From the NCBI GenBank assembly GCA_018062765.1, contig JAGORR010000001.1, positions 356,930 to 420,929 of the forward strand: a stretch of 64,000 nt of DNA. Reading direction: 5' to 3'. The notes under the pieces were generated by a model, which saw nothing but the letters and a program-made list of their open reading frames with translations, was not told where the DNA came from and made no database searches. Positions 1,889 to 48,700 of this stretch are shown here, piece after piece. Source of the stretch: Minisyncoccota bacterium. GTDB taxonomy: Bacteria > Patescibacteriota > Minisyncoccia > Phycocordibacterales > Phycocordibacteraceae. The position numbers and the translations under genes were made by a program. How positions within the stretch are numbered: the first letter of the stretch is position 1; each line of letters starts with the position of its first letter.

Positions 1889-4360
1889 ATGGCAAAAGCT
1901 AAGGAGCCTGAAGCAGGAGGGGAAGCCGCGCCGGTACAGCGCGTCATACAGCAGTCGATTACGGGCGAGATGCGCACGTCGTATCTCGACTACGCGATGT
2001 CCGTCATTACCTCGCGCGCCCTGCCTGATGTGCGTGATGGCCTCAAGCCGGTGCATCGCCGCATCCTCTTTACGATGCGCGAAGCAGGCCTCACGCCGTC
2101 CGCAAAGTTCCGTAAGTCAGCGACGGTGGTCGGAGACGTGCTCGGTAAGTATCACCCTCATGGCGACGTCGCCGTCTACGACTCCATGGCTAAGATGGCG
2201 CAGGATTTCTCATACCGGTATCCGCTTGTCATGGGTCAGGGAAACTTCGGATCCATCGATGGCGATTCTCCTGCTGCCTACCGTTATACGGAGGCGAAGA
2301 TGTCGCGCCTTTCCGACGAGCTTCTCGCAGACCTCGAGAAGGACACGGTGACCTGGGGCGCCAACTACGACAACACCCGACAGGAACCGAAGGTGCTTCC
2401 GGCGGCGCTCCCGAATCTTCTTTTGAACGGAACGTTGGGCATCGCTGTTGGTATGGCGACCAACATCCCGCCGCATAACCTGAAGGAGGTGGTAGATGCG
2501 ACCGTGCACCTTATCGATGAGCCGGAGGCGACAACCGATGACCTCCTGGGAATCGTGAAGGGTCCTGACTTCCCTTTGGGCGGCATCGCATTCAATCAGG
2601 CAGACATCAAGCACGCGTACGCTAACGGCAAGGGCGGCGTTGTCGTGCGCGGCGAGGCAGAGATTGTCGAGGACAAGAAGGGAAGCCACATCGTGATCAC
2701 TTCTATTCCGTATCGCGTTAACAAGGCAGAACTCATCACGCGCATCGCGGAGTTGGTGCAGGAGAAGAAGCTCGAGGGCGTCCGCGACCTTCGCGATGAG
2801 TCAGCGGCAGACATTCGCGTCGTTGTCGAGCTTAAGGGCACTGCACACCCGCAGGCGGTATTAAACGCTCTCTATAAGCACACGGAATTGGAGTCCACCT
2901 TCCACTACAACATGCTGGCGCTCGTCGACGGTGTGCCGCAGACGCTGTCCTTGAAGGGTATGCTCGAGCACTTCATCGAGCACCGCAGGGAGGTGGTGAA
3001 GCGTCGCACGGAGTACGACCTCCGGAAGGCCGAGGAGCGCGAGCATATCCTCTTGGGACTCTCGAAAGCGCTCGATCATATCGACGAGGTCATCGCCATA
3101 ATCAAGAAATCAGCGGACGTTGCTGCGGCTTCCTTGGCGCTCCAGAAGAAGTTCGCGTTCTCGCAGATACAGGCGGCAGCGATTCTCGAGATGCGCCTTT
3201 CGAAGCTTGCAGGCCTCGAGCGCAAGAAGATTGAGGATGAGCTTGCGGAGGTCCAGGCGCTCATCAAGAAGCTCAAAGAGATTCTCTCCTCCGCGAAGAA
3301 GATTCTCGCGGTGGTGAAGGCCGAGCTCGTCGCTATCGGCGAGAAGTACGGAGATGATCGCCGTACGAAGATCGTGAAGGGCGGAGTGAAGAACATCTCG
3401 GTCGAGGACATGGTTCCCGACGAGGAGAGCGTCTTGGTCATCACCGCAGGCGGCTATGTGAAGCGCACTAACCCATCAGAGTACAAGGCGCAGAAGCGCG
3501 GTGGCGTTGGTGTTATCGATATGTCTACCAAAGAAGAGGATGTGGTGACCCACTTCCTTTCTACTTCGGCGCACTCCGACCTTCTCTTCTTCACGAATCT
3601 CGGCAAGGCGTACCAGACCAAGATGTACGACATCCCAGAAGGAAGGCGCGCAACGAAGGGGAAGTCCATCATGAACTTCCTGCCTTTTGCAGCCGAGGAG
3701 AAGGCGACATCAGTGCTTGCGGTTCCAAAGGGCGCCGAGCGGGATGCCTTGTCTGTGTTCTTCGTGACCGAGCAGGGCGTCGTGAAGAAAGTTGCTGCCA
3801 AGTCATTCGCTGACGTGCGCAAGTCCGGCATCATCGCGATAAACCTCAAGGGCGGAGATAAGCTCGTCTCCGCGCACTTGGCCTCCGAGGGGGATACCAT
3901 TTCCATAGTGACCGCGAAGGGGCAATCGATACGGTTTGCGGCAGACGACGTGCGCGAGATGGGGCGCACGGCGGCGGGTGTGCGCGGCATGTCTGTGAAG
4001 AAGGGAGACTCGGTAGTTTCCGCAGAAGTCATTCCAGCTGCGGACGAGAAGCACGCAGCGCTCCTCGTCGTCATGGCCAAAGGGTATGGCAAACACACAT
4101 CTATCGATGAGTACAAAATTCAGGGACGCGGTGGATCGGGTATTAAGACCGCAGAGGTGACCGGCAAGACTGGTGAGATTATCGGCGCGAAGGTTCTCAC
4201 GGGTGAATTTAAGGAGGATGAAATCGTCGTCATCTCGAAGAAAGGCCAGGTCATCCGCACGAAGGTGGGGGAGATTTCGAGCCTTGGACGCGCGACGCAG
4301 GGGGTACGCATTATGAAGTTGCGAGAGGGAGATGCCATCGCCTCCATGGTGGCGTTGTAA
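1889..4360 (+). CDS. gyrA: DNA gyrase subunit A
   Basis: 823 aa. Hallmarks are [41 protein letters not shown] (catalytic Tyr region) and C-terminal beta-pinwheel repeats. Confidence 0.97.
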
Positions 4361-4581
4361 ACCGCGGATAAGGGTCATCTGCGTCGTTTCTCATTCCGGT
4401 GCTCGCTCACCGTATTTCAATACGGCTCGCTTCGCTCCTCATTCGTGCCTCGCATCTGAACCCTTCTTCACGGTTTATTGAGTGACTTAGTATCTGCTTC
4501 CAATTTTCGCCAAAATTCCTGTGGCGTTGCGCTTTATAGGTGTCGGGCTACACTCGAGAACGGAAAGAAAGGAGGGCCCCA

Positions 4582-5284: not shown

Positions 5285-5935
5285 CTATTTGCTACGGAGC
5301 GCAAGCAAGGAGAGGATGCCGGAGAACGCACCAGCGGACAGTAGTCCGTGCCACAGGAAGTGAGTGCCCATTGTTATGTACTCGCATGCCCACAAATCGA
5401 TAGACCGGAACAGGAGCGCGGATAGGGCGAGCACGAGTGCAAGGATGCCAAGGAGAGCGGCGCGTCCGGATACTCGATAGCTCCTCCACGTGAGTAAAAG
5501 CCCAAGGAGGACAACCGGAATTGCGACGCCTGCGAAAAAAGGTAGTTCAGGGAAGGTGGCATCGACCAGGAGTGCCGAGAGGTATTGGAGCGCGAGAAAT
5601 GCGACAAACATGAGGCCGGCGCCGAGCCATCCGTAGAACGTGCGAGCCCAAAAATATACGAAGAACAGTAGGAATAGAAGTCCTGGTGTCGTGTCGAAGG
5701 CAAGTGCCCACGGGGTGCGCAGTCCGTGCCATAGTAGGCTCCCAACGCCGTTCGTGACTAAGAGAATGCCAAGTACCCAGAGATCGTACGCGCGCGGTGC
5801 GCGGCGGTACACAAGGTAGAGTGCGAGGAGTCCGAACGCGACAATGATGAGGTTGGACCATGTATTCCATGTTTCCGCAGGGAACGCGGTTAACACATCT
5901 GGCGTCTCACAATACTGCGGACCGAAAGGGTACAT
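5285..5935 (-). CDS. polytopic membrane protein (about 7 TM, ceramidase/hemolysin-III-like topology)
   Basis: 216-aa ORF of consecutive hydrophobic helices (WNTWSNLIIVAFGLLALY...HFLWHGL). The family call is tentative. Confidence 0.6.
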   Translation of the reverse strand: MYPFGPQYCETPDVLTAFPAETWNTWSNLIIVAFGLLALYLVYRRAPRAYDLWVLGILLVTNGVGSLLWHGLRTPWALAFDTTPGLLFLLFFVYFWARTFYGWLGAGLMFVAFLALQYLSALLVDATFPELPFFAGVAIPVVLLGLLLTWRSYRVSGRAALLGILALVLALSALLFRSIDLWACEYITMGTHFLWHGLLSAGAFSGILSLLALRSK

Positions 5936-5986
5936 GCGCCTAGTTTAGCAAATCGCTATTCCTCGACCTCCTTGCTCTCTCCTAGT

Positions 5987-6026
5987 TTGCTCCATCTCGG
6001 TGCCTATAGGCACCGAGATGGAGCAA
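5987..6026. repeat. perfect 40-nt palindrome, copy 1 (TTGCTCCATCTCGGTGCCTA|TAGGCACCGAGATGGAGCAA)
   Basis: Read directly. A second copy at 62402-62441 differs only by a compensatory T..A to C..G pair. Confidence 0.9.
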
Positions 6027-6175
6027 AGAAGTTCACGGCATATCACGTTGTTACATGTACTAGCTCGCGTTTGCGCGCAAAAGCTCGCGCGCACCCAATA
6101 GTACTCACATCCTGTTCCTACTCTCCCCAAAAACCGACGACCCAAGGCAGATGCGTGCTATTTTTATACATATAT

Positions 6176-6712
6176 ATGTCATTCGCGGACCCGCGAGAGA
6201 ATGTTCTGCAGATAGGCCTTCATGACGGCATGAAGGTGGGAGACTTGGGCGCTGGATCGGGTCACTACGCGCTTGCTGCAGCTGGCGCCGTCGGAGACAC
6301 CGGTCGCGTGTACGCGATCGATGTCCAGGAGGAAGTCGTCATGCATATAAGGGACGCGGCACATCGCGCAGGGCTCAAGAATGTCGAGACGATATGGGGA
6401 GACTTCGAACGCCCTGGCGGCACCAAGCTTAAGGACGGAGTCCTCGATGCTGCCATACTCTCGAATGTCATGTTCCAGGTGGAGCATCATACGAGCGCGA
6501 TCTCGGAGGTGAAGCGCATCGTGCATCCTGGCGGAAAGGTGCTTGTCATCGACTGGGCGGGTTCCTACGGGCACTTGGGGCCTCATCCGGACCAGGTCGT
6601 TCCTGAGTCAGAAGCAGAGCGATTGTTTATACAGGCAGGATTCCACAAGGCGAAGAGTTTTCGCGCAGGTCCCCATCACTACGGTATCCTGTTTACGACA
6701 CCCGCCTCATGA
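6176..6712 (+). CDS. class I SAM-dependent methyltransferase
   Basis: ORF track 5972..6712 is over-extended, so the start is taken at ATG 6176 (MSFADPRENV). SAM motif I is VGDLGAGSGHYALAAAG. Confidence 0.8.
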   Translation: MSFADPRENVLQIGLHDGMKVGDLGAGSGHYALAAAGAVGDTGRVYAIDVQEEVVMHIRDAAHRAGLKNVETIWGDFERPGGTKLKDGVLDAAILSNVMFQVEHHTSAISEVKRIVHPGGKVLVIDWAGSYGHLGPHPDQVVPESEAERLFIQAGFHKAKSFRAGPHHYGILFTTPAS

Positions 6713-8011: not shown

Positions 8012-8464
8012 ATGAAACGCACAGCCATCTTCGTTTCTGCACTCTTGCTGACTCTTTCAGCGATGTCCGCCCCAGTGTACGCGCAGGACATGAATCTTGG
8101 GGGTGGAGCGACCGGTAACGCTAGTACCAATCTCGGCGGAGGTCCGTCAGGTAACGGTACCAATCTGGGGGGAGGCTCTCAGGGGTGCGGATTCCTTTTG
8201 AATCCACTCGACAACGAGTGCAATAGCGACATGACGCTCAATGATCTCCTTAGCAAAATATTGAACGTCATCGTCCAGATAGGTGTAGTCGTGCTCACTA
8301 TGATGCTCGTCTACGTTGGTTTTCTCTTTGTCACTGCCCAAGGGAACCCGGAAAATCTTTCCAAGGCCCGGAGCGCACTCATATGGACGATAATCGGCGG
8401 CTTCCTCGTGCTTGGCGCGAGCGTCATTGCAGAGGCGGTTAAGTCGACGGTTGAAGCGCTCTGA
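8012..8464 (+). CDS. VirB2/TrbC-like two-helix pilin paralogue 1 (signal peptide, NLGGG x3 repeats)
   Basis: Signal peptide ...APVYA/QD. C-terminal TM1-loop-TM2 module VVLTMMLVYVGFLFVTAQGNPENLSKARSALIWTIIGGFLVLGASVI. Confidence 0.7.
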   Translation: MKRTAIFVSALLLTLSAMSAPVYAQDMNLGGGATGNASTNLGGGPSGNGTNLGGGSQGCGFLLNPLDNECNSDMTLNDLLSKILNVIVQIGVVVLTMMLVYVGFLFVTAQGNPENLSKARSALIWTIIGGFLVLGASVIAEAVKSTVEAL

Positions 8465-8465
8465 T

Positions 8466-8738
8466 ATGGACGGCGAGGAGGTTATCGTCGTGGGACAGAA
8501 AGGCACCTTCGCCTCGATGGTGTACAAGTTCACCGGCTTCATTGACTCCAGTATTATCCCGTTATTGTTTGCGGCCGCATTCCTCGCGATGCTGGTGGGC
8601 ATATTTCGCTATTTCATGATTCCGGGCGAGGAGAATTTGCAGAAGGGTCGCCAGTTTTTGCTGTGGGGCGGTATCGCTTTTGTGTTCATGTTCCTTATCT
8701 GGGGGCTCGTAAACCTACTCCTCGATTCGGTATTCTAG
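8466..8738 (+). CDS. VirB2/TrbC-like pilin paralogue 2 (no signal peptide)
   Basis: ORF track 8412..8738, with the start at ATG 8466. Module is FLAMLVGIFRYFMIPGEENLQKGRQFLLWGGIAFVFMFLIWGLVNLLL. Confidence 0.65.
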   Translation: MDGEEVIVVGQKGTFASMVYKFTGFIDSSIIPLLFAAAFLAMLVGIFRYFMIPGEENLQKGRQFLLWGGIAFVFMFLIWGLVNLLLDSVF

Positions 8739-8786
8739 CTGTTTATAAGTACACATAGCCTGGCTCAGTACTGATACGCTAAACGT

Positions 8787-9215
8787 ATGAAAAAGACATT
8801 CTCCGCCCTATTGTTTTCACTAGCGCTCATGTTCACACTTACACCGTCCATTGCCTTTGCGCAGGGCCAGCAGCAGCCGCAACCTGATCAGCAGGGCACG
8901 GGTGAGTCACAGCCGAGCGAGCTCGAGCTTCGTATCGGATGGCTTCTCGACTTCGTCGATGGGTACGTCATTCCGCTCATATTCGGACTCGCATTCGTCG
9001 TATTCATCTGGTTCGTGTTCGTGTACTTCATCCTTGGCGGAGCTGAGGAAGAGCAGCGCGCTAAAGGAAAGCAGTTCCTGTTGTGGAGTCTTATTGGGTT
9101 CGTACTCATGCTCTCCTTGTGGGGTATCGTGAACCTGCTTCAGAACACCATAGGATTCGATAATAACTCCAAGCCGTGTCTGCCGGTGTTCGAACAGGAC
9201 AACGAAGACTGCTAA
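8787..9215 (+). CDS. VirB2/TrbC-like pilin paralogue 3
   Basis: Signal peptide ...SIAFA/QG. Module is FVVFIWFVFVYFILGGAEEEQRAKGKQFLLWSLIGFVLMLSLWGIVNLLQ. Confidence 0.7.
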   Translation: MKKTFSALLFSLALMFTLTPSIAFAQGQQQPQPDQQGTGESQPSELELRIGWLLDFVDGYVIPLIFGLAFVVFIWFVFVYFILGGAEEEQRAKGKQFLLWSLIGFVLMLSLWGIVNLLQNTIGFDNNSKPCLPVFEQDNEDC

Positions 9216-9299
9216 TGCGGTTGTCCCCACAGTGCACCCCATACGATTGACTTCGCGCCAAAGCCGCTTACCCTTAGTACATATCCGCTTACCACTGCT

Positions 9300-9689
9300 A
9301 TGAAGAAAATTCTCTTGCTCGTCGCTCTGTTCACCATCCCGGCCATTGCGTTCGCGCAGTTTGGCGAAGGCGGTAATAATCAGGACCTTGGCGATCTCGG
9401 TCAGGAGTTCACTGACATCATCAATAACATCGCGGTTCCGCTTATCTTCGCGCTCGCGTTCGTCATCTTTATTTGGGGAGTATTCAAGTACTTCATTCTT
9501 GGTGGCGGAGACGAGGAGGCTCGCGAGAAAGGTCGCGACCTCATGATTTGGGGACTTCTGGGATTCTTCTTCATGATTTCAGTCTGGGGACTCGTGAATC
9601 TCGTCGTGAACACCATCGACCTGGAGCAAAGCGGAGCACCGGACGAAAATGACTTGCCGGACGCTCCGGGAGTCAGGGACTCGAACTAA
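9300..9689 (+). CDS. VirB2/TrbC-like pilin paralogue 4
   Basis: Signal peptide ...AIAFA/QF. Module is FVIFIWGVFKYFILGGGDEEAREKGRDLMIWGLLGFFFMISVWGLVNLVV. Confidence 0.7.
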   Translation: MKKILLLVALFTIPAIAFAQFGEGGNNQDLGDLGQEFTDIINNIAVPLIFALAFVIFIWGVFKYFILGGGDEEAREKGRDLMIWGLLGFFFMISVWGLVNLVVNTIDLEQSGAPDENDLPDAPGVRDSN

Positions 9690-9704
9690 CTCATAGTGTA
9701 GGCG

Positions 9705-9729
9705 AAAAGACCCGCTCGGCGGGTCTTTT
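9705..9729 (+). terminator. intrinsic terminator
   Basis: aaaaGACCCGC-tcg-GCGGGTC-TTTT. Confidence 0.7.
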
Positions 9730-9783
9730 GCTATCCCCGATTAGTACGTGCCATAGATGAGTGCGGATATATACTGAACAGTA

Positions 9784-10053
9784 ATGAACGAAAGAGTAGA
9801 GATACCGCTTCTTGAGGGCATCAAAACGCAGATAGTGAATCCCATCATCACGCTTCTAGCGCTTGGAGCATTTGTAATGTTTCTTTGGGGTCTCGTCGTA
9901 TTCATATGGAATGCCGGGGATGCGGAGGCGCAGTCGACGGGGAAGCGCGTCATGCTGTGGGGTGTCATTGGGCTTGTTGTCATATTCGGTGCGTGGAGCA
10001 TTGTGGAGCTTATCGGAAGCACGATAGGGGTAGACCCAAATCAGTACCGGTAA
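9784..10053 (+). CDS. VirB2/TrbC-like pilin paralogue 5
   Basis: 89 aa. Module is GAFVMFLWGLVVFIWNAGDAEAQSTGKRVMLWGVIGLVVIFGAWSIVELIG. Confidence 0.65.
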   Translation: MNERVEIPLLEGIKTQIVNPIITLLALGAFVMFLWGLVVFIWNAGDAEAQSTGKRVMLWGVIGLVVIFGAWSIVELIGSTIGVDPNQYR

Positions 10054-10621: not shown

Positions 10622-11860
10622 TCAGATGTTCTTGGTTGCATTATGGCCGACAGCGGCGTCGAGAAGGCTGTTGCCGCTCGACTGCACGATGACCTTTTTT
10701 GCAGTCCCGCGCCGGGCTTGTACCCGGTCGAGAGCCTCGGTCAAGGTCATGATAGACTCCTTTGTTTTTTCAGAAGACTTTTCGGACGCCGCGACGAGCT
10801 TGAGCGCTTGCTCGAGTTCGGCATCGCTGTCCTTATCCTCGGCACGCTTCTCTGCGTCTTCCGCTGCGGCCTTGTTCTGTGCCAGTAGCATCACAGCATC
10901 TGGAGTGAGACGCGCGACGTTGAATCGCGTGATCTTAACACCAAGCTGCCGTACGTCACCGACACCGTTCGCAACCGCAGTGTTGAGGAAGAACTCAATC
11001 TCCTTCTCAACCTCGCGTTGCGCGGCGCGCTGCTCCTTCGCTTCGAGGCCCGCGCCTGCCTCAAGGAAGTAGGCTACGGGGTCGTCGATCGCTTTAAGCG
11101 TTCCGTCCTGAGTCTTCGCCTCGTAGTTCGTGGCAGTGATACCGAGACGTTTGATCTGCGCTTCGTCGACTTTCCCGCTTGCGTCGCGAGGAAGCTCAGC
11201 CATCTTGGTGTTCGCGATCATCGTGATGAGCTGAACGGATAGTGGAAGCTTGAGGAACAGGAACTGCTCCCAGGTATGGAAGAGTGCTGCACCACGCATG
11301 GCCTCCTTCGTCATGCCTTCAACGATGCTTCGGACGCCGTTCATGAGGCCGCTCTTGATCAACTCCTTCATGCGCTGAGGCCCGATCGGTCTTCCGCTGT
11401 CGTCCTTGGCTTCATGGTCTGGCTCGATCGTAAGATCGACCTTCACATCCACGGAACCGCCCGCGGTCTGTTTGCCCTCCTTGTCGGTCGCCTTGCAGGT
11501 GACCGAGAATGGGGCAAATTCGACATCGAGACGGGTTACGTCAATTGGTATCAGGCCGATTTCAAACGGCAGGTAGTCTGCCGTCATGTAGTCGCCTGGT
11601 CCGACGAGGATGTCCTGCGGTTCGCCATAGCAAGTCACCAAGGCGACATGCTGCGGCTTGGCAGAGACGTTCGTTTTCCAGCCCATCTTCACCATGAGGA
11701 TTCCGAGAGTGGCAAAGCTGACACCCATGAGGTAGTTCCCGTCGACTCGGTAGGCGAGAAACGCACAGAGCGCGCCGACCGCCATAAGTATGACGGCGAT
11801 GCGCCACAACTTCGAACTGAAGTCAGGACCGACTATGTATTGGCTTACAAGGTTCTTCAT
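10622..11860 (-). CDS. SPFH/band-7 (flotillin/prohibitin-like) membrane protein with coiled-coil tail
   Basis: 412 aa. Two N-terminal TM helices. SPFH-like core (HVALVTCYGEPQDILVGPGDYM..LPFEIGLIPIDVTRLDVEF). Ala/Glu/Lys-rich C-terminal coiled coil. Confidence 0.7.
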   Translation of the reverse strand: MKNLVSQYIVGPDFSSKLWRIAVILMAVGALCAFLAYRVDGNYLMGVSFATLGILMVKMGWKTNVSAKPQHVALVTCYGEPQDILVGPGDYMTADYLPFEIGLIPIDVTRLDVEFAPFSVTCKATDKEGKQTAGGSVDVKVDLTIEPDHEAKDDSGRPIGPQRMKELIKSGLMNGVRSIVEGMTKEAMRGAALFHTWEQFLFLKLPLSVQLITMIANTKMAELPRDASGKVDEAQIKRLGITATNYEAKTQDGTLKAIDDPVAYFLEAGAGLEAKEQRAAQREVEKEIEFFLNTAVANGVGDVRQLGVKITRFNVARLTPDAVMLLAQNKAAAEDAEKRAEDKDSDAELEQALKLVAASEKSSEKTKESIMTLTEALDRVQARRGTAKKVIVQSSGNSLLDAAVGHNATKNI

Positions 11861-20734: not shown

Positions 20735-20756
20735 AACCGCCCGAAAGGGCGGTTTT
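20735..20756 (+). terminator. intrinsic terminator after rpmG
   Basis: AACCGCCC-gaaa-GGGCGGTT-TT. Confidence 0.7.
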
Positions 20757-20859
20757 GCATTACTCAGGCCAGCTTGACGAGGGGTCTTTCATGCAGCAGA
20801 GTGCGCACGGACCAGATACCGGATTCCCCGGTCACATCATCTGGCAGAGAGAGGTTCGA

Positions 20860-21342
20860 ATGAATTTCTGGCAAAAGCTTGGGATCGCGGTCGGTGCGCT
20901 TCTCGTCCTCACGATGCTCGGCTACGGCTTCTTCCGCGCCGGTTTCGTCGGCAAGGTCGAGAACTACGAGATCGGTTACGTCTTCCATCCGCTCTCAGGT
21001 GAAATCGAACGGCTCGATCGGCCCGGCTACCATCTGATGCTGCCGTGGGATAACCTCGGCGTCATCGACAAGCGCCCGATGCAGGTTTGCATCGCCGCGA
21101 ACAAACGCGTCCTCAACTGCAAGTTAGTGCAGTTCAACCCGAGCGAGGAGGGACTCAAGACGTTCCTCAGCTGGCACGGCGTCGACTACGCGAGCGGGAC
21201 AGTCGCCTCGGCCGGCTCGGGATCCCCTCTCGCGGAGATCCTGATGAGCTATGCATACGACGGGTCGGGGAAGACCTATCCCTTCCTCACGGTCATCCGC
21301 GAGATGAAGGGGATAGATGCTGACGCGGCATCCGTGCAATGA
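20860..21342 (+). CDS. hypothetical membrane protein, paralogue A (SPFH-N-terminal-like motif)
   Basis: ORF track 20755..21342. Start at ATG 20860 after AGAGAGAGG. One TM helix, then YEIGYVFHPLSGEIERLDRPGYHLMLPW..NCKLVQFNPSEE. Confidence 0.6.
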   Translation: MNFWQKLGIAVGALLVLTMLGYGFFRAGFVGKVENYEIGYVFHPLSGEIERLDRPGYHLMLPWDNLGVIDKRPMQVCIAANKRVLNCKLVQFNPSEEGLKTFLSWHGVDYASGTVASAGSGSPLAEILMSYAYDGSGKTYPFLTVIREMKGIDADAASVQ

Positions 21343-21791
21343 GGACCGTCGCGTACGCAACCCTCATGGGCCTCGCGATTGCGCTCGCTTCGTTCTATCT
21401 GCTCTGCGTGAACTATCTGGGTGCGAACGAGCGCGGACTTGCCTACGACGTGTTCTCGGGCGAGCTCTTCTTGCAGGAGCAGCCGGGCATCCAAGTGACC
21501 CCGCCGTGGATCTTCACGACGAGAATCGACCTGGAGCCGAATAAGGTGTGCGTCACTTCGACGGCGCATGCCCGGTTCAACTGCAGGCTTGTCCAGTTCA
21601 TACCGGAGGAATACCGTGCGTTCCTCGAGGTCGAAGGGTGGCGCTGGTATTGGTGGAGCAATCGCATCTCCTTCAACTGGGGGTACGACGACGAGTACCG
21701 AGGGTTCCGCGACGTGCTGCGCGGCTATGCACTCTCCGGCCAGGACTACCCGTTCATCCGCGTTCTCGAGGAGTTCGAAGAAGGAGCCTGA
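21339..21791 (+). CDS. hypothetical membrane protein, paralogue B
   Basis: ATGA overlap with paralogue A. Shares the TM helix plus ..SGELFLQEQPGIQVTPPW..NCRLVQFIPEE..YPFIRVLEE. Confidence 0.6.
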   Translation: MRTVAYATLMGLAIALASFYLLCVNYLGANERGLAYDVFSGELFLQEQPGIQVTPPWIFTTRIDLEPNKVCVTSTAHARFNCRLVQFIPEEYRAFLEVEGWRWYWWSNRISFNWGYDDEYRGFRDVLRGYALSGQDYPFIRVLEEFEEGA

Positions 21792-22239: not shown

Positions 22240-22313
22240 TGGCGGGCCCAGTAGGAATCGGACCTACGCTAACGGTTTTGGAGACCGTTGTACTACCACT
22301 ATACGATGGACCC
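22240..22313 (-). tRNA. tRNA-Trp (anticodon CCA), CCA end encoded
   Basis: Hand-folded. Acceptor GGGTCCA/TGGGCCC. Anticodon arm ACGGT-cTCCAaa-ACCGT. T arm GTAGG-TCCGATT-CCTAC. Confidence 0.88.
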
Positions 22314-22411: not shown

Positions 22412-23368
22412 ATGCGCCGCTTGGCACTTTACCTCCTCGCAGCTTCTCTCATACCGCTTGCCGCGGCGGCACAAGGGCTTCCGTCAGGCTCAATCATCCC
22501 GGACCTCGATGAGGGAGATCAGAACCTGCGCACGTGCGCTGCAGGTTGGAAGGCGGTTCTCATAATATCGGGAGGGTTCCTAGAGCTCGCAATTTACATC
22601 GCGATGCTTATCGCCGTTCTCGTTATCGTCTATGCAGGGATTATATTCCTGTTTAATGCGACAAACCCCGAGAACCTGTCGAAAGGGAAAAAGATTCTTG
22701 GAAACGCGGCGATTGGTCTTCTTATTACGCTTTGCGCATGGCTACTTGTGAATACGGTGCTCACAAGCCTGGGCGCAGGAGACATCGCAAGCCGCACAAG
22801 CGTCATAGGTTCAGGCGGCTCGCTCTGTATCACGATACAACCTCCGCAATCTCAAATACCAACCAGTCAGGAAGTAGCTGCCGGTTTGCCACTGGCACCA
22901 CCTCCTCGAGGTACCGGCTCGTGTGACCCGATTGCTGTGCGCGCAGCCGCAGCGGCCGGTGGGTACCAAATCTCGGAGCGAGAGGCGAACACATTTGCCT
23001 GCCTTGCAGGTCCCGAGAGCTCGTGCGGCGCAAATGTCGATGGTGCGACGACGCCTTCTGGGCAGCGTACGAGTGCAGCGGGTCCGTGGCAGAACATTCT
23101 TGGTTTTAAGGATAAGTGCCACTCACTCAACATCCCCGCCTGTGGCAACTTGCAGTGTCACCAGGCATTTTCAGGCGGAGTGGAGAAGTCTGATCCGGCC
23201 TCGAGAGCTCTCGCTGCCAAGTGTCGTCAGGCACTTGCAAACCTTACGTGCGCTGCCGCCGCAGCCGTGTGTCTTAATAACGCGAGCGGAAACGACTTCA
23301 GCGACTGGACTGCGGATTCGCGCAGCTCGAAACAGAAGAAGTGTATTCGCGACCATGCGGGGCTCTAG
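22412..23368 (+). CDS. pilin-like N-domain fused to a Cys-rich lytic-transglycosylase-like (SLT-like) domain
   Basis: 318 aa. Signal peptide. N-module is IAVLVIVYAGIIFLFNATNPENLSKGKKILGNAAIGLLITLCAWLLVNTVL. The C-domain has SLT-like motif order: PESS, GPWQNIL, LNNASGNDFSDW. Confidence 0.6.
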   Translation: MRRLALYLLAASLIPLAAAAQGLPSGSIIPDLDEGDQNLRTCAAGWKAVLIISGGFLELAIYIAMLIAVLVIVYAGIIFLFNATNPENLSKGKKILGNAAIGLLITLCAWLLVNTVLTSLGAGDIASRTSVIGSGGSLCITIQPPQSQIPTSQEVAAGLPLAPPPRGTGSCDPIAVRAAAAAGGYQISEREANTFACLAGPESSCGANVDGATTPSGQRTSAAGPWQNILGFKDKCHSLNIPACGNLQCHQAFSGGVEKSDPASRALAAKCRQALANLTCAAAAAVCLNNASGNDFSDWTADSRSSKQKKCIRDHAGL

Positions 23369-23383
23369 CGCTATACTTTACCT

Positions 23384-23926
23384 ATGAGCCGAACAGCCTT
23401 TTGGATACTCGCACTCGCATCGGTTGGGCTTTTGGCTGCTGGCACACTTTTCTATCTCAATTTGAATCCTGAGCCGGAAGCTCCTCCCATGGTAACTCCT
23501 GACCCATTTGGGAGTACTAACGATGGCGTAATTATTACGGCCGTGGGCGGGGAGGACATACGCGCTCGTGACTTCGTTAACGATGGCGAGACTGAACCTG
23601 ATCCCGGTAATCCCGGAACGTACTTCCTTGCCGGTTATTTCGGCTACTGCGACGGGGACGAGGAGTGTGAACCTATTGCAACAAGCGACTTCAACATTAA
23701 GTACGATAGCAAGATTGATGCCTTCACGATCGGTCTTGCCACCGAGCCGATAGGTGAAGTTAGGAAGCGTGCAGAAGCATTTCTAATGAAGAAGCTCGGG
23801 ATTGGGGAAAATGATATGTGTGCACTCAATTACTATGTCGGCACTTCGTATTGGGTAAATGAAACTTACTCGGGAGGTAATCTTGGGTGGAGTTTCTGTC
23901 CCGGCTCCATAGCACTTCCTGACTAG
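23384..23926 (+). CDS. hypothetical membrane-anchored secreted protein
   Basis: 180 aa. N-terminal TM helix. Acidic, Cys-containing ectodomain. Sits between the two pilin-hydrolase fusion genes. Confidence 0.55.
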   Translation: MSRTAFWILALASVGLLAAGTLFYLNLNPEPEAPPMVTPDPFGSTNDGVIITAVGGEDIRARDFVNDGETEPDPGNPGTYFLAGYFGYCDGDEECEPIATSDFNIKYDSKIDAFTIGLATEPIGEVRKRAEAFLMKKLGIGENDMCALNYYVGTSYWVNETYSGGNLGWSFCPGSIALPD

Positions 23927-23927
23927 T

Positions 23928-24839
23928 ATGCGACGTACTACGACATTGCTCCTGCTTCTCCCGTTGCTACTTACAGCTATGCCCGCGCATGCGCAGTTCA
24001 CCGAGGGCTGGACCATCGTCCCGGCAGCGTGCCATTCGTGCCCTGCGGCTTGGGTTTGCGTACTTGAGATGCTCAACAATCTGGTGACGCTCATCATGAC
24101 CATCGCGGTCTTAATCGTCGTACTCGTCATCACCTACGCCGGCATCCTGCTTGTGTTTACTGCGACGAACCCCGAGAACAAGAGCAAAGCAAAAAGCATG
24201 CTTATTAATGCTGCGGTAGGTCTCGTCATCGCTCTTGGCGCGTGGCTCATCATCGATAAGGTCCTCGAGTCTTTGGGTGCGGGCGGTATAGACGAGACAA
24301 CGCGCGTTATTGGTACCGGTGGCAGCGCATGTGTTGTTGCTCAGGATCCGATCACTGAGCCGCCTGAGGGAACGGATCCATCGCCTATTACTCCCGGTCC
24401 TGGCGGTGGAGGCAGCGGCGCTAATTGCCCGGTCCCGGCGGCGTCCGGGATGGTGGCATTCCCTGCGGAGGCTACAAGCGGTGAAACTGAATACGCAACA
24501 CCGAGTACGGTCGAGAACTTCCTTGCGATGCGCGCCGCAGCGCTTGCCGATGGAATTGACATTAAGGTGACTGACGGATATCGGTCCGAAGCCGAACAGG
24601 TTCAGTTATGGTATCGCTACAATCAGGACACGAGCCAAGTCGCAAGGCCGTGTACGCTAGGTGGCAGCGGTTCAAACCACAACTCAGGTGTCGCTCTGGA
24701 CCTCACCGTCGGCTGTAGAAAGACAGATAGTTCCTGTGATAGCGCCCAATACCGATGGCTTAAAGCAAATGGTTCTCAGTGGGGCTTCAACAACAATTTG
24801 CCTACCGATACGGTGCACTGGTCACCATCGGGTCGCTAG
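23928..24839 (+). CDS. pilin-like N-domain fused to a peptidase M15 (VanY-type D,D-carboxypeptidase) domain
   Basis: 303 aa. Signal peptide. N-module is IAVLIVVLVITYAGILLVFTATNPENKSKAKSMLINAAVGLVIALGAWLIIDKVL. M15 motifs are VTDGYRSEAEQ, SNHNSGVALDL (SxHxxGxAxD) and DTVHW. Confidence 0.75.
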   Translation: MRRTTTLLLLLPLLLTAMPAHAQFTEGWTIVPAACHSCPAAWVCVLEMLNNLVTLIMTIAVLIVVLVITYAGILLVFTATNPENKSKAKSMLINAAVGLVIALGAWLIIDKVLESLGAGGIDETTRVIGTGGSACVVAQDPITEPPEGTDPSPITPGPGGGGSGANCPVPAASGMVAFPAEATSGETEYATPSTVENFLAMRAAALADGIDIKVTDGYRSEAEQVQLWYRYNQDTSQVARPCTLGGSGSNHNSGVALDLTVGCRKTDSSCDSAQYRWLKANGSQWGFNNNLPTDTVHWSPSGR

Positions 24840-42989: not shown

Positions 42990-45731
42990 ATGGAGGGAAC
43001 ACGGCAGCTTACGACTCCCGAGGAGGAGCTTGCCTACTTGCGTGCGCAAGTAGAGGAGAAAGAACGCGAGCTCGCGGGGCGCGCGCAGGAAGCACCGCGC
43101 AACACTCTCGTGCACGAGCGTATCCTTCATCACCGGCGCGAGATGCCAGAGACGGTGCTCGCTCCGTCCTACAAGCTACCTGAAGCTGAAGTGGAAGGCA
43201 TCGCGCTGGATCTCGATCCGGATGATAACGACGCAACGATGGCGGAACTTCAGGGAATCATGGAGGAGAAGGGTATCAAGAATGCGCTCTCGGTCCTTGA
43301 AAAGCTCCGGAATCCGCATCTCGATGACGACTTCCATCGATTCCTGGTGCAGTACGTCGTCGCTGGAATGCAGGTGAAGGGGCTCGGGGAACGGGAACCA
43401 GCATGGAAGGCGCTCCACATGACTCTCTACGAGGTCATCCTTCCGGAGCCCGGCAAGGACTCGGACGCGCGAGAGAAGACCTTGAAGGAACTCATCTCCT
43501 CGATGGAGCAGTTCTATGCAGGCATGCTCTCGGTGGGGGATGCGAGCGCGAGCGAGCCGGGCTATTTCTCGATGGAGCTCGCTGTTCCCGCTAATCGTCC
43601 GGAGCTCCTTTTCTATGTCGCTGTGCCTAACGGCAAGCGCGCGCTCTTTGAGCAGCAGCTCTTGGCAACCTTTCCGAACGCGAACATTCGTCCGCAGCCG
43701 AACGATTACAACATATTCAGCGAGGATGGCGTTGCCGTAGGCGCCTCTGCGACGCTAGCTGACAAAGGCGTGCTTCCTCTCAAGGATTATGCTGATTTCG
43801 ACTACGACCCGTTGAATACGGTTCTGGGTGCCTTCGCGAAGATCGAGAAGGCGAGCGAGGGAGCGGCGCTCCAAGTCATCATCGAGCGCGATACGCACCA
43901 CCTGGAACATTACCGCCGGATACTCGGAGCGCTCCGTCGCGGCGAATCGAAGGATCGTGCGCTCTCGATGCCGGAGACATTCGTGGGCGAGGCCGCGCGC
44001 GAGATCGGGTCAGCGCTCTTCCCGGGCTCACGCAAATGGGAGAACGAAGTTGAGAAGAGAGCCGAAAGGAAAGATGGGAACCAGGCTTTGATTGAGCAGA
44101 TAGAGAAGAAGATCGCAGCTCCCATCGTAAAGACGACGCTCCGTCTCATGGTGTCCTCGCCGACCCACACCCGCGCGGAGTCAGGGCTCGCGGACCTTGA
44201 GGCGGCATTCAATCAGTTCACCAACACCGTAGGCAACAAAATCAACTGGAATCGGTTCTCAGGCACCAAGGTACAGAGCCTTTTCCATGCATTCTCTTAC
44301 CGTTTGCCGGCGAAGGACGCGATACCGCTTTCTCTTCGAGAGGTCACGAGCCTCTACCACTTCCCGCCCGAGGGCATCAGCTCTACGCCGCAACTCCGGC
44401 AGTCGCGCTTCACTGCGGCCGCTGCGCCCTTGGATCTCCCTGACTCGGGGACGTATCTCGGGGATAACGAGTTCCGCGGACGGAAGACTGCGGCATTCCT
44501 GTCGCCGGAGGACCGCATGCGGCACCTCTATGTCGTCGGACAGACGGGAACCGGTAAGTCGGTATTCATGAGGAATCTCGCCATACAGGACATCAAGGCA
44601 GGGAACGGCGTCTGCTTCATCGACCCCCACGGGAACGACATCCTCGATATCCTCGCGGCTGTACCTCCCGAGAGATACGAGGATGTCATCTATTTCGATC
44701 CGGCGAACCTGGCGCGTCCGTTCGGCCTCAACTTGCTTGAATACGATGCGAGCCGCCCAGAGCAGAAAACCTTCATCGTTAATGAGATCCTCGCGATATT
44801 CCGCCGCCTCTACGGGGACGTGCCGGAGTCGATGGGTCCTGCGTTCGAGCAGTACTTCCGCAACTCAACCCTCCTGGTGATGGAGGACCCGGCATCGGGC
44901 TCGACCTTACTCGATATCGCGCGAGTCCTTTCGAACAAGGAGTTCCGCGACCTGAAACTCTCGCGAAGTAATAATCCGGTCATAAACCAGTTCTGGAACG
45001 AGATAGCGACGAAGGCTGAAGGAGAGGCATCGCTTCAAAACATCGTTCCGTACATCACTAACAAGTTCGATGACTTCACCGCGAACGACTTCATGCGGCC
45101 AATCGTCGGGCAGCAGGAATCCTCGTTCAAATTCCGTGAGGTGATGGACAACAAGAAGATACTCCTTGTGAACCTCTCTAAAGGAAGGCTCGGGGAACGA
45201 AACGCCAACCTCCTGGGCCTCATCCTCGTCGGGAAGATATTCATGGCTGCGCTCTCTCGTGCAGATAACCCGAGGGCAGACTACGCGCCGTTCTACCTCT
45301 ATATCGACGAATTCCAGAACATAACTACGGACTCCATACCGGGAATCCTCTCCGAGGCTCGCAAATACCGGCTTTCGCTTACCATGGCGCACCAGTTTCT
45401 GGCGCAGGTGGATGAGAAGGTGCGGGATGCCGTGTTCGGGAACGTCGGCTCCATGGCCGTGTTCCGCGTCGGCGAGGAAGATGGCGAGTACTTCGAGAAG
45501 CAGTTCGCGCCGGTGTTCTCCGCGCTCGATTTCGTGAACATAGAGAATTACAACGCGTACGTCAGACTCCTTGCGCGCGGCGTGCCGCAGAAGCCATTCA
45601 ATATAAAGACGCCGCCACCGGCCGCCACGAACCCTGCGCAGGTGGACGACCTCAGAGAGCTCTCAGCACTCGTCTACGGCCGCGACCGTACACAGGTGGA
45701 AAACCTTATCAGAAGCAGGTACATGTCATAA
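42990..45731 (+). CDS. TraD/VirD4-like FtsK-HerA-superfamily ATPase (type IV coupling-protein-like) with a large soluble N-terminal domain
   Basis: 913 aa. Walker A VVGQTGTGKS. Walker B FYLYIDEFQN. SEARKYRLSLTMAHQFLAQ is typical of the TraD/TraG C-terminal region. I found no N-terminal TM helix. Confidence 0.7.
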   Translation: MEGTRQLTTPEEELAYLRAQVEEKERELAGRAQEAPRNTLVHERILHHRREMPETVLAPSYKLPEAEVEGIALDLDPDDNDATMAELQGIMEEKGIKNALSVLEKLRNPHLDDDFHRFLVQYVVAGMQVKGLGEREPAWKALHMTLYEVILPEPGKDSDAREKTLKELISSMEQFYAGMLSVGDASASEPGYFSMELAVPANRPELLFYVAVPNGKRALFEQQLLATFPNANIRPQPNDYNIFSEDGVAVGASATLADKGVLPLKDYADFDYDPLNTVLGAFAKIEKASEGAALQVIIERDTHHLEHYRRILGALRRGESKDRALSMPETFVGEAAREIGSALFPGSRKWENEVEKRAERKDGNQALIEQIEKKIAAPIVKTTLRLMVSSPTHTRAESGLADLEAAFNQFTNTVGNKINWNRFSGTKVQSLFHAFSYRLPAKDAIPLSLREVTSLYHFPPEGISSTPQLRQSRFTAAAAPLDLPDSGTYLGDNEFRGRKTAAFLSPEDRMRHLYVVGQTGTGKSVFMRNLAIQDIKAGNGVCFIDPHGNDILDILAAVPPERYEDVIYFDPANLARPFGLNLLEYDASRPEQKTFIVNEILAIFRRLYGDVPESMGPAFEQYFRNSTLLVMEDPASGSTLLDIARVLSNKEFRDLKLSRSNNPVINQFWNEIATKAEGEASLQNIVPYITNKFDDFTANDFMRPIVGQQESSFKFREVMDNKKILLVNLSKGRLGERNANLLGLILVGKIFMAALSRADNPRADYAPFYLYIDEFQNITTDSIPGILSEARKYRLSLTMAHQFLAQVDEKVRDAVFGNVGSMAVFRVGEEDGEYFEKQFAPVFSALDFVNIENYNAYVRLLARGVPQKPFNIKTPPPAATNPAQVDDLRELSALVYGRDRTQVENLIRSRYMS

Positions 45732-45743
45732 TCACAGCTATAT

Positions 45744-48700
45744 ATGGCAGGCGAGGGTCCAGGAAACGGTAATGGCAGCAAGCTCGCGGAGCAGCTTGCG
45801 AAACTCGTCGAGCAGAAAGGCCTTCAAGGGATGGCAGTCGCTGATGCTGGTGAGGAACAGGTGCCTGCTCAAGTTGCCACCCCCGCTGTTGTTGAACAGC
45901 ATGAAGTGCCCGTTTCCAGCTACGATGAGGCAGCGGTCTCGAAAGCGCACAAGCGATTCACCGCGCTCATAAGGGGGCTTGAGAAACACCCCGAGATACA
46001 GGTACGTCCTGATGCGCTTGCGAGCCTGAAGACGGCATTCGATGCTATGGGTAAGGCAAAAGGCAGGCTGAAGGCTATGGATGACGCGAATGAAGTGAAT
46101 CACGAACGCCGTAAGAAACAGTTGGATATCATCCAGGCATCGTTTTCCGTGATATTCGGAGAAATCGGAAACGAAGTATCCGAAGGGCTGCGCCCGGTCG
46201 ATGGGACTGCGACAGGAAGGAACGAGGCCACTTCGCGCGACGAAGTGGATACGCGCTACTATCCGCTCGCAGATGAGATTTTCGCAAAGGGGTATAACCC
46301 GAATGAGCTCGAATCGTGGCGAAACATCGCTAAGCGAGTCAAAAGGCCGATTCCAGGAAAGCCTTACAACCCGGGGATATCGCTTACTGATCGCGAGATA
46401 CGCGCGGTTCGCGCCGAACTTGCCAAACTCGAGCAGAAGGACCCGATAGTGCTTCCGACTAAAGCTGCGTCAGAACCAGCACCGCAAGTGCCGCGCGAGC
46501 GGGCACGAAAGCCAAAGCGATCGGAAAAGGATCGCGAGTCACGCGCGATTCGCGATGAACCAAGCATATACGACTCACCTGGCCCGATGCGCCGTACCGA
46601 CATGGACCGCATTGATCCTGCGGTCGTATCAGGGGTAGTTGGAACGTTTGACACGAATGCTCCTGATACGGTTACGGAGCCTTCTGGAGCGGATGCCGCC
46701 TCTGAACTCGACGTCGAGCCTGCTATTCACGACAGCACGCCGAGGCTCCCTGCGGATAAGTTCAAGGATGCGACCCCGAAGAGCGTACGCGAGAGTCTGC
46801 GCCGTTCGATACTGAGTATCAAAGAGCTGCCGCCTACGGAAATGCCAGCCGGGGCTATCGATACCTTGCCGCCTGACCTCGGGTTGAGAACCACTACTCC
46901 CGCAAGAGCGGAAGCGCTGAGGTCCGTAGTCACCCCGCCCGGATCGATAGACACGCTTCCTCCGGTCATCGATACTGCGCCGCAAGCATCTGCAGCCCCA
47001 GAGCCTGTGCTGGTTGCGGAGGTAGATCCGGACGCCGCTGATGCGGCACTTGCGCACGCCGTGTTCCCGAGTGCGTCAACGGAAGGTGTAGCAAATCTTC
47101 CCGCAGTGGTGAATTCGGAAGCTACGCCTACATGGCAGCCGCTCTCGGAGCAAGGTCTCACGCAAGAAGAACTTGTGCATCGGCGTGCTGAGCGCCGTGT
47201 GCAGATTGGCGTCGAGGCTGGCCTTACACAGGAGCTTGGCGACATGTACAACGCACGCGAAGCGTACCTCACTGCGTACCGGGCATTTTATGCGAATAAC
47301 AACCTGGCTGCGCGCGCTGCAGTACAGGCAACGAATTCCACCGAGTGGCAGAACTTGAAGCGACTTGAGGCTGCCTCGGCGACAGCAAGCCTTGCATACC
47401 AGCAAGCACTCGAGCGTTCCGCGACGGAACGGCTAACGGCTAACGCGCCTGAGCGCGAGGCGCTGCTACGTGCAAAGGGAGAGGCCAGGTACCTACTTCT
47501 TGTCGGCGTCGGCTGGAATGCGCCGCGGTACGAAGACGGCCGGCTGATGTCTAAAGAGGACTACGTGAACCAGTACATGACGCAGTACCAGGGCCGCGTA
47601 CTCGATCGCTACATGTCTACTATTGCGTGGCGCGAAGTCACAGCCGGGAACGAGAACGCACGCATCGAGACTCGTGCGGAGGCGCTAGGAGCAAAACAAC
47701 GCAACGTCTTCGATAGGATGCGCTCGTTGGTCCAGGCAACGAACCAGGGACTCGAACGGACGCTTACTCCGACGGGCGCTCGCGCATTCCGTATCGTCGC
47801 AGCTGCGGGCGTCGGTACCGTGCTTGGCGGGTGGGCAGCAGGTGCGATGCGTGGTGCCTCGGTTATCGCAGGTATGCTCACTGGCTCCACCGCGGGTGCG
47901 GCAGCAGGCTCCTTGTTCCAGCGTCTCGTGGGTGCGCGCCGGGCAGCTGCCGTTGATACTGTGCGACACTCGCGTATCACAAGTGCCGCAGACTTAACAG
48001 CGGCAGCTGCTGCGTTCCGCAAGGGTGACGCTGCGCAAATAGCAGCTACGCGAAGGCGTTGGGAGATGGGCGTCGCGCTCGGCGTCGCCTTCCTTACGGC
48101 ACGTTCTATGCCGGGACTAGAGCCCGTCGTTACTAGCTCCCTTAGCGATTTGAGGCGCATCGGCGGAGAGATTATGGGAACAGGCGAGAGCGCCGGCGCG
48201 ACAGCGGCCGTACCCACTGGTGGCGAGTCAGCGTCGCCTTCGTCAGCGGTCACGGGAGGCGCTGGCGGCAGTGAAGGCCAGTCTGCGCCTGTCGCCGGGG
48301 GTGAGAGCGGTACGGGAAGCGGAGCACCAAGAGCAGGCGGTGAAGGCTCCGGGGGCGCAGCTCCGCTCGACTCATCCGTGCCGCCACCTGCGAACAATCC
48401 AGGCCCTGCGGGGAGTCCCTTCGGACGCATTCCGGTACCGACGGATTCCGTTCCGCAGGCGGACGCTATCGGGGGATTCGCTCGTGAGTCGGCGATAATC
48501 TCGGGCGGTAACGGAGGTGACGCCGTGTCGAGTGAAGGACTCGACGATATGCGCGCAGTTGCGGCCGAAGTGCGCGGCACCTCGACAGAATACGTGGCAC
48601 GTTCAGGTGACGGCGGCATTAAGCTCGTCGAAGGTCTCCAGCAGCAGCTTGCGCGCGAGGGCATCACTGAGACGACACCAGGCATTTCAGCTATGACGCG

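Follow-up and report, generated by a model that had tools for sequence, protein, structure and literature searches.

We describe here a three-gene operon, at positions 22412 to 24839 of a 64,000-nucleotide stretch of a Minisyncoccota bacterium genome (assembly GCA_018062765.1, contig JAGORR010000001.1, positions 356,930 to 420,929; hereafter the window), in which two cell-wall hydrolase domains are each joined to a hairpin of the type IV secretion system (T4SS) pilin family. The first open reading frame (ORF1) ends in a lysozyme-like domain and the third (ORF3) in an M15 peptidase domain, and between them lies ORF2, which encodes a small membrane-anchored protein. This layout of three ORFs around an anchored protein of 180 aa agrees to the nucleotide with an original prediction made from the sequence alone. 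We favour, tentatively and with something short of an even chance, the reading that this operon, which is conserved in Paceibacteria, encodes two wall hydrolases that are tethered by pilin hairpins and associated with a T4SS, with ORF2 as the partner of the first enzyme.

The N-terminal modules of ORF1 and ORF3 each consist of a signal peptide, ending in AAA/Q and AHA/Q, respectively, followed by two hydrophobic helices with a short basic loop between them; the loop reads ATNPENLSKGKK in ORF1, ATNPENKSKAKS in ORF3 and QGNPENLSKARS in the free pilin encoded at 8012-8464. The matches of both modules to the Pfam family T4SS_pilin (PF18895) lie above its gathering threshold of 26.6 bits (Table 1). 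Aligned with each other over 115 aa, the two modules have 50% identity (E 1e-36), and the alignment extends past the second transmembrane helix (TM2) through the extracytoplasmic segment to a conserved Cys. They share 30-36% identity with the free pilin at 8012-8464, which itself passes the threshold of the TrbC/VirB2 family (PF04956; 32.8 bits against 27.9 bits). Moreover, each of the five free pilins at 8012-10053 is matched by a profile of the fusion hairpins, and this profile also matches 355 proteins in a collection of 5.8 billion, with E values down to 1e-20; the matches listed are free proteins of 68-195 aa, mostly PF18895, some of which are named "pilin" or "VirB2 component" in their source. 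Both modules exceed the Pfam threshold, and free pilins of 91-195 aa are recovered with their profile; they are true Patescibacterial T4SS_pilin members rather than generic transmembrane hairpins. The predicted kinship of the shared signal peptide-TM1-loop-TM2 module with the small pilins at 8012-10053 is thus borne out. In the expected topology, the Lys-rich loop (NPEN-K-S-K-A-K) is on the cytoplasmic side and the Cys-containing termini lie outside. A single-sequence AlphaFold2 (AF2) model of full-length ORF1 contains two long helices, residues 37-82 and 87-121, with predicted local distance difference test (pLDDT) values of 66-79; this model is poor overall (pLDDT 48) and was excluded from the fold search. 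Across orthologues, conservation of the ORF3 family is 49% in the hairpin, 56% in the catalytic domain and 30% in the linker, and that of the ORF1 family is 33%, 41% and 15%, respectively. One 524-aa protein (P0079) carries about five tandem pilin-like hairpins head to tail and may be called a "poly-pilin".

The C-terminal domain of ORF1 is rich in cysteine, with 10 Cys in 150 aa. Searched alone, it finds no Pfam family at E values up to 10 and no PDB sequence, and a word-indexed homologue search with it gave no match. An exhaustive search of representative sequences recovered 86 representatives (50% clustering). Because PF18895 is present in 68 of the 71 full-length homologues, fusion to the pilin hairpin is the rule for this domain; weak Pfam matches among the same 71 are to SLT (2) and SLT_3 (4). 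It is evident from their alignment that C171, C197, E202, C205, G224, Q227, C244, C280 and C311 are invariant, and S203 is nearly so. The profile of the domain matches human C-type lysozyme (E 2e-4), with PES lying over W-E35-S and SSAxGxFQI over S-T-D53-Y-G-I-F-Q-I of the human enzyme; the position of Asp53 in glycoside hydrolase family 22 (GH22) is taken by a near-invariant Ala222. An AF2 model of the domain built with a 53-sequence alignment has a lysozyme-like fold (pLDDT 96.4, predicted template-modelling score 0.91), so that the lysozyme-like fold that had been asked of this Cys-rich domain is present. Fold matches of the domain include EtgA and phage tail lysozymes, and Foldseek returned no PDB match.

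Model and sequence together thus place catalytic Glu-Ser and G-x-x-Q motifs in a lysozyme-like fold, and the ORF1 C-terminal domain belongs to the lysozyme superfamily as a divergent member that is rich in disulfides and has a single catalytic Glu, without a close solved structure. By sequence profile, its nearest neighbours are the C-type lysozymes. The original prediction had likened it to family-1 lytic transglycosylases on the basis of three motifs. The first two, E-S and G-x-x-Q, stand, as E202, G224 and Q227 are invariant; the third, an AYNxG-like "NNASGNDF", is not conserved, with only W299 retained. Membership in the family-1 SLT group itself (PF01464/PF18896) is rejected, since no hidden Markov model (HMM) match was found and the third motif is not conserved, and assignment as a true GH22 lysozyme is rejected for want of the catalytic Asp. 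The domain is set apart from both GH22 and GH23 (SLT/SLT_3) by its own pattern of 10 Cys and by Ala222 at the Asp53 position. Five longer members of the family (P0091, P0093, P0099, P0103 and P0145; 540-724 aa) have PKD/Ig-like domains on the N-terminal side of the pilin hairpin and the lysozyme-like domain on its C-terminal side; in these proteins the hairpin is thus flanked by extracellular domains on either side.

The C-terminal domain of ORF3 matches VanY (PF02557) at 50.9 bits over residues 191-294 (gathering threshold 25 bits), and it carries the motifs SNHNSGVALD and DTVHW. The Zn-binding His-x6-Asp and the C-terminal His are present. R219, H251, D258 and H297 do not vary among 45 homologues, and D294 is nearly invariant. 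The predicted M15/VanY domain is confirmed, and ORF3 ends in an intact M15 zinc peptidase domain. The closest solved relatives by sequence are L-Ala-D-Glu endopeptidase domains, those of the phage endolysins Ply500 (2vo9, E 4e-5) and LysB4. At the catalytic-base position, ORF3 has Asp, in D-x-x-H, in place of E-x-x-H with the Glu of VanX/VanY, and this fits the M15C subgroup. These features suggest that ORF3 probably cleaves stem peptides as a LAS peptidase and that "D-Ala-D-Ala carboxypeptidase" is merely a family label; a specific assignment as D-Ala-D-Ala carboxypeptidase is rejected because the nearest solved relatives are L-Ala-D-Glu endopeptidases. With the M15 enzymes in general (the carboxypeptidases VanY and LdcB; the endopeptidases Ply500, LysB4 and CwlK), ORF3 shares S-x-H-x-x-G-x-A-x-D and the C-terminal His, and it differs from them in its fusion to the pilin hairpin and in extra Cys pairs (C242, C263, C270).

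Related loci were collected by a search with the ORF3 alignment; a search for related loci with ORF1 alone found nothing. ORF3 homologues fall into 79 clusters at 90% identity, about 72 of which contain both PF18895 and PF02557. Of the 23 GTDB species surveyed (Paceibacterota, Parcubacteria, Kaiserbacteria and others), about 16 have the full module of pilin-glycosidase, ORF2 and pilin-peptidase, and so do two further metagenome contigs (L029 and L030). Its usual place on the chromosome is between ClpB and a miaA-AhpC-ParB-RelA-TopA series, and this position is kept across 30-79% protein identity. Five loci (L003/L009, L016, L020 and L026) have the pilin-VanY gene only, with both ORF1 and ORF2 missing. 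In a marine metagenome-assembled genome (MAG; L024), the operon has four genes, encoding a pilin module with a canonical SLT domain, an ORF2-like protein, a pilin module with VanY, and an extra pilin module with Peptidase_M15_4; this version lies at 3521-4414 and 977-2068 of that locus. The pilin-hydrolase fusion thus forms a conserved, vertically inherited chromosomal operon of Paceibacteria and is not a one-off. An origin from a mobile element or a defence island is rejected in view of the conserved chromosomal synteny and the lack of PADLOC matches. The original prediction had called the fusion unusual. This holds for the literature searched, in which we found no mention of a pilin-hydrolase fusion, including a survey of Patescibacterial T4SSs (PMC12102498) and a T4SS review (PMC12857230); in the genomes surveyed, the fusion recurs from species to species.

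The catalytic ends of these proteins are exchanged among close relatives. The L029 and L030 organisms are close to that of the window (ClpB 92%, AhpC 87%, miaA 74-75% identity), and their N-terminal modules are conserved (normalised score 0.69-0.77); the score of the gene-3 C-terminal domain is 0.04. The gene-3 VanY domain is replaced by non-homologous domains, one NlpC/P60-like (P0069, E 0.011) and the other a different Cys/His-rich domain (P0074). In both loci the gene-1 domain is of SLT_3 type and ORF2 is sharply diverged. Similarly, positional orthologues of ORF1 carry a canonical SLT domain in L024 (92 bits, 2e-26) and an SLT_3 domain above threshold in L029 (29.9 bits). A conserved N-terminal module thus stands with non-homologous C-terminal domains in L029 and L030, and co-evolution is seen between the gene-1 and gene-3 hairpins (rho 0.84). 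Beside the swapped domain in L029 lies an extra gene for an anchored 169-aa protein (5909-6418, minus strand) with a weak DUF3828 match (E 0.001). It is present only where the NlpC/P60-like domain replaces the gene-3 VanY, and it is a candidate immunity gene.

In ORF2, the N-terminal anchor is followed by a linker that varies and then by a conserved domain of about 110 aa, in which F114, R127, A130, L138, C146, C172 and L178 are invariant in the family. ORF2 has no match in Pfam (E up to 10), NCBIfam, PADLOC or PDB sequences, and its profile gives no meaningful PDB match; among the Pfam lysozyme inhibitors (Ivy, MliC/PliC) in particular, no HMM match was found at E up to 10. Its distribution and divergence follow ORF1. 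The loci without ORF1 are exactly those without ORF2, and in L019, where the gene order is rearranged, ORF2 still follows the glycosidase gene. Furthermore, ORF2 similarity tracks that of the ORF1 C-terminal domain (rho 0.64; partial Mantel test controlling for the hairpins, r 0.57, p 0.0002). The corresponding value for ORF2 and the ORF3 C-terminal domain is r 0.28 (p 0.05), and the ORF1 and ORF3 C-terminal domains do not track each other (r -0.02). The best-supported reading is that ORF2 would be the cognate partner of the ORF1 glycosidase.

The window contains other parts of what may be the same secretion apparatus. The five genes of the free pilin array lie at 8012-8464 (150 aa), within 8412-8738 (about 75-108 aa), and at 8787-9215 (142 aa), 9300-9689 (129 aa) and 9784-10053 (89 aa). 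Downstream of the operon, 42990-45731 encodes a 913-aa FtsK/HerA-type ATPase with weak, sub-threshold VirD4/TraD/VirB4 matches (DUF87, TraG-D_C, TrwB P-loop), followed by a 1267-aa ORF without a Pfam or NCBIfam match; this region (42990-49547) is probably the T4SS core of the genome. In Southlakia epibionticum, the essential T4SS locus has a lysozyme-like protein and a Hedgehog/DD-peptidase (LAS) protein beside virB4, together with PF18895 pilins (PMC10633639; PMC12102498), and most Patescibacteria with VirB2-like pilins have no recognisable VirB1 according to the survey (PMC12102498). The pairing of a lysozyme-like and a LAS protein by virB4, and the missing VirB1, support a candidate T4SS role for the operon.

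In our favoured reading, of two hairpin-tethered hydrolases working with a T4SS, ORF1 and ORF3 would be exported by Sec and their signal peptides cut. The hairpin would sit in the membrane with the Lys-rich loop (NPEN-K-S-K-A-K) in the cytoplasm, and a Pro-rich linker of about 30 residues would keep the catalytic domain outside the membrane. ORF1 would cut glycan strands with its single catalytic Glu, in the manner of a lytic transglycosylase or of a lysozyme, and ORF3 would cut peptide stems through its LAS zinc site, most like the L-Ala-D-Glu peptidases of endolysins; the wall concerned may be the cell's own or that of a host. The hairpin and the free pilins of this genome are of one family, and for this reason we propose that at the T4SS the hairpin assembles together with them or shares their location, which would in turn confine wall cutting to the spot where the pilus or channel passes. 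Such local cutting would correspond to what VirB1, PrgK or CwlT provides for other T4SSs and FlgJ for the flagellum. ORF2 would bind and restrain the glycosidase domain, or otherwise regulate it.

Several points weigh against this reading. The operon lies outside the T4SS cluster, about 18 kb from the T4SS-type ATPase and about 12 kb from the pilin array, so that by position it does not qualify as a VirB1-type T4SS hydrolase locus, and no T4SS gene was found within 5 kb in any related locus. Its synteny with housekeeping genes also counts against a tight link to the T4SS. The TrbC/VirB2 match of ORF3 is below threshold (20.1 bits) and ORF1 has none. Because the hairpin profile found no solved VirB2 or TraA chain among PDB sequences, the tie of the hairpins to classical pilins is transitive, via the Pfam families. 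In the literature searched, no experiment demonstrates pilus formation by a PF18895 protein. Finally, fast swapping of catalytic domains is more typical of antagonistic effectors than of an enzyme that serves the assembly of a machine.

This last point leads to an alternative that is possible but doubtful, in which the T4SS would polymerise the hydrolase-pilins as minor or tip subunits, carrying interchangeable "warheads" against the wall of a host or competitor, with ORF2 as the immunity protein. The original prediction likewise suggested enzymes displayed on, or delivered through, a pilus-like structure, perhaps against a host wall. A more specific form of it is rather unlikely: the VirB2-like hairpin would be a loading module for lysozyme-like, M15 and NlpC/P60-like "warheads", the pilus would bore through the host wall, and ORF2 would be the cognate immunity protein. 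In line with such a role, close relatives keep the N-terminal modules and swap the gene-3 VanY, with an SLT_3-type gene 1 and a diverged ORF2, and in L029 the extra anchored 169-aa gene stands beside the swapped amidase-like domain. The N-terminal PKD/Ig-like domains of some family members and the phage endolysins as nearest solved relatives of ORF3 point the same way. Moreover, cultured Patescibacteria are epibionts in which the T4SS and the pilin array are essential (PMC10633639). The behaviour of ORF2 can be read in both directions. It co-varies with the ORF1 C-terminal domain beyond phylogeny and is lost together with ORF1, as expected of immunity; however, its family is kept across Cys-rich, SLT_3 and SLT glycosidases, which is unusual for specific immunity proteins, it matches no known lysozyme-inhibitor family, and no immunity candidate adjoins ORF3 in the window or in most loci. 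Polymerisation of a pilin with a C-terminal domain of 150-190 aa is without support, and the products are membrane-anchored. Some 18 kb separate the operon from the T4SS-type ATPase, and it is a single-copy, vertically inherited locus surrounded by housekeeping genes.

The same setting is what an explanation by housekeeping autolysins would draw on. Here the enzymes would remodel the cell's own wall in growth and division, the hairpin would be a mere two-helix anchor with no link to the T4SS, and ORF2 would be a regulator. The constant position of the operon among ClpB, miaA, AhpC, ParB, RelA and TopA across the whole range of protein identity, without linkage to T4SS genes, is consistent with this, as are the standard use of M15 peptidases and lytic transglycosylases in wall maintenance and the NCBI annotation of ORF3 as a plain M15 metallopeptidase. 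A plain anchor, however, needs neither a conserved cytoplasmic loop nor conserved extracytoplasmic flanks, and conservation of the hairpin nearly reaches that of the catalytic domain. At this locus one module is found on at least four enzyme types (VanY, Peptidase_M15_4, SLT/lysozyme-like and NlpC/P60-like), and a core autolysin would not be expected to exchange its catalytic domain for a non-homologous one between near relatives; these observations make the explanation improbable. That the ORFs arose by chance or that the pilin-enzyme fusion is a mis-assembly has a negligible probability, as identical proteins are present on a 638-kb NCBI contig and the architecture occurs in more than 75 ORF3 clusters (90% identity) and in 68 of 71 ORF1 representatives (50% identity), from many independent assemblies.

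The tethered-hydrolase operon can be compared with several known systems. With the VirB2-like pilins of Patescibacteria (PF18895; Southlakia epibionticum, Nanosynbacter lyticus), the N-terminal modules share the signal peptide, two transmembrane helices and basic loop; the known pilins are free-standing proteins of about 90-190 aa, whereas here the hairpin is followed by a linker and enzyme of 170-190 aa. The T4SS hydrolases of monoderm bacteria (PrgK of pCF10, TraG of pIP501, CwlT of ICEBs1; also SEML1_0006/0007 of S. epibionticum) are likewise membrane-anchored, extracytoplasmic, and glycan- and peptide-cleaving. Unlike in PrgK, TraG and CwlT, the two activities here are on two proteins, the anchor is a pilin hairpin instead of a single transmembrane helix, the peptidase is M15 and not CHAP or NlpC/P60, and the genes lie outside the T4SS cluster. 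In FlgJ, VgrG3, phage tail and tape-measure lysins and EtgA-EscI, a wall cutter is coupled to a filament or needle subunit and lysis is local. FlgJ unites a rod cap with a muramidase, and VgrG3 of Vibrio cholerae unites a spike with a lysozyme-like domain and has TsiV3 as its immunity protein. EtgA is a lytic transglycosylase of the type III secretion system that is bound to the rod protein EscI; here the carrier is a T4SS pilin-like hairpin, and its incorporation into a filament is putative. Coupling of a hydrolase to a structural subunit is thus already known from these systems, and a T4SS pilin hairpin as the carrier was not found in the papers searched. The polymorphic effector-immunity systems of type VI secretion (Tae-Tai, Tse3-Tsi3) also have a conserved N-terminal module, swappable wall-degrading ends and a co-varying small neighbour gene; in contrast to them, the present locus has no multiple orphan cassettes and no immunity candidate for ORF3, and its ORF2 is kept across glycosidase subtypes.

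Table 1. Features of the hydrolase operon and of the T4SS-related regions in the window (coordinates are window positions).
Feature	Coordinates	Strand	Description	Score, accession or basis
ORF1	22412..23368	+	318 aa: signal peptide, T4SS_pilin hairpin, Pro-rich linker, Cys-rich lysozyme-like domain	NCBI MBP6859981.1 "hypothetical protein"
ORF1 signal peptide	22412..22471	+	residues 1-20, MRR...PLAAAA/QG	sequence reading; putative cleavage site
ORF1 T4SS_pilin (PF18895) match	22577..22759	+	residues 56-116: TM1, loop ATNPENLSKGKK, TM2	36.8 bits
ORF1 C-terminal lysozyme-like domain	22916..23365	+	residues 169-318; Glu202 codon 23015-23017 in PES; G224-x-x-Q227; 10 Cys	
ORF2	23384..23926	+	180 aa: N-terminal membrane anchor, extracytoplasmic domain, Cys146/Cys172; GC 50.3%	
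ORF3	23928..24839	+	303 aa: signal peptide, T4SS_pilin hairpin, Pro/Gly linker, M15/VanY zinc peptidase	MBP6859983.1
ORF3 T4SS_pilin (PF18895) match	24066..24254	+	residues 47-109: TM1, loop ATNPENKSKAKS, TM2	43.8 bits
ORF3 M15/VanY (LAS-type) domain	24420..24836	+	residues 165-303; Zn H251, D258, H297; D294 in D-x-x-H; R219	
Free T4SS_pilin array, five genes	8012..10053	+	homologous to ORF1/ORF3 N-terminal modules	putative functional link
T4SS-type (VirB4/VirD4-like) ATPase candidate	42990..45731	+	about 18 kb downstream of the operon	putative functional link

The three genes are co-directional, with gaps of 15 nt between ORF1 and ORF2 and 1 nt between ORF2 and ORF3. At its 3' end, ORF3 shares 4 nt with the convergent miaA, and the upstream boundary of the locus is a tRNA-Trp gene on the minus strand (22240-22313). 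The window is part of a Candidatus Paceibacterota MAG chromosome, with gyrA, IF-2, ClpB, miaA, AhpC, ParB, RelA/SpoT and TopA as housekeeping neighbours. NCBI names the exact proteins (MBP6859981-83) "hypothetical", "hypothetical" and "M15 family metallopeptidase", and the public annotation contains neither the pilin module of ORF1 and ORF3 nor the lysozyme-like domain of ORF1. A scan for promoters and terminators gave signals at or below the expectation from shuffled sequence and was uninformative. The GC content of ORF2, judged by eye in the original prediction to be lower, is indeed below the 56.9% and 56.5% of the flanking ORFs and the window mean of 57.1% (sd 3.0%, ORF2-sized windows). 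At third codon positions (GC3), GC is 0.50-0.60 in the operon genes, 0.44 in the pilin array and 0.70-0.73 in neighbouring housekeeping genes. The array is divergent in sequence and has a GC of 52.1%; its GC3 of 44% compares with about 70% for miaA and for the ATPase. The low GC3 of the operon and the array could stem from a codon-usage regime of their own, from faster evolution or from exchange in the past. The array resembles the essential pilin arrays reported in Saccharibacteria, and it is adjoined by a 412-aa ORF (10622-11860, minus strand) without a Pfam or NCBIfam match. Just upstream of the operon, 20755-21791 encodes two tandem anchored paralogues of 195 and 150 aa (29% identical, E 2e-14) without a family match; L003 has two unannotated ORFs (164 and 153 aa) at the matching place, the likeness noted being in size and position.

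Patescibacteria account for a large part of bacterial diversity, and all that have been cultivated live attached to a host; in the sole genetically tractable species, the T4SS and the pilin array are essential. The pair of pilin-hairpin hydrolases is a concrete candidate for the VirB1 function that is missing in most genomes with VirB2-like pilins. For expression and assay, the operon also provides a putative inhibitor and two catalytic domains that are small and soluble. If the hairpin does act as a carrier, these proteins would be the first lead for an enzyme-carrying pilus, a mode of T4SS action so far undescribed.

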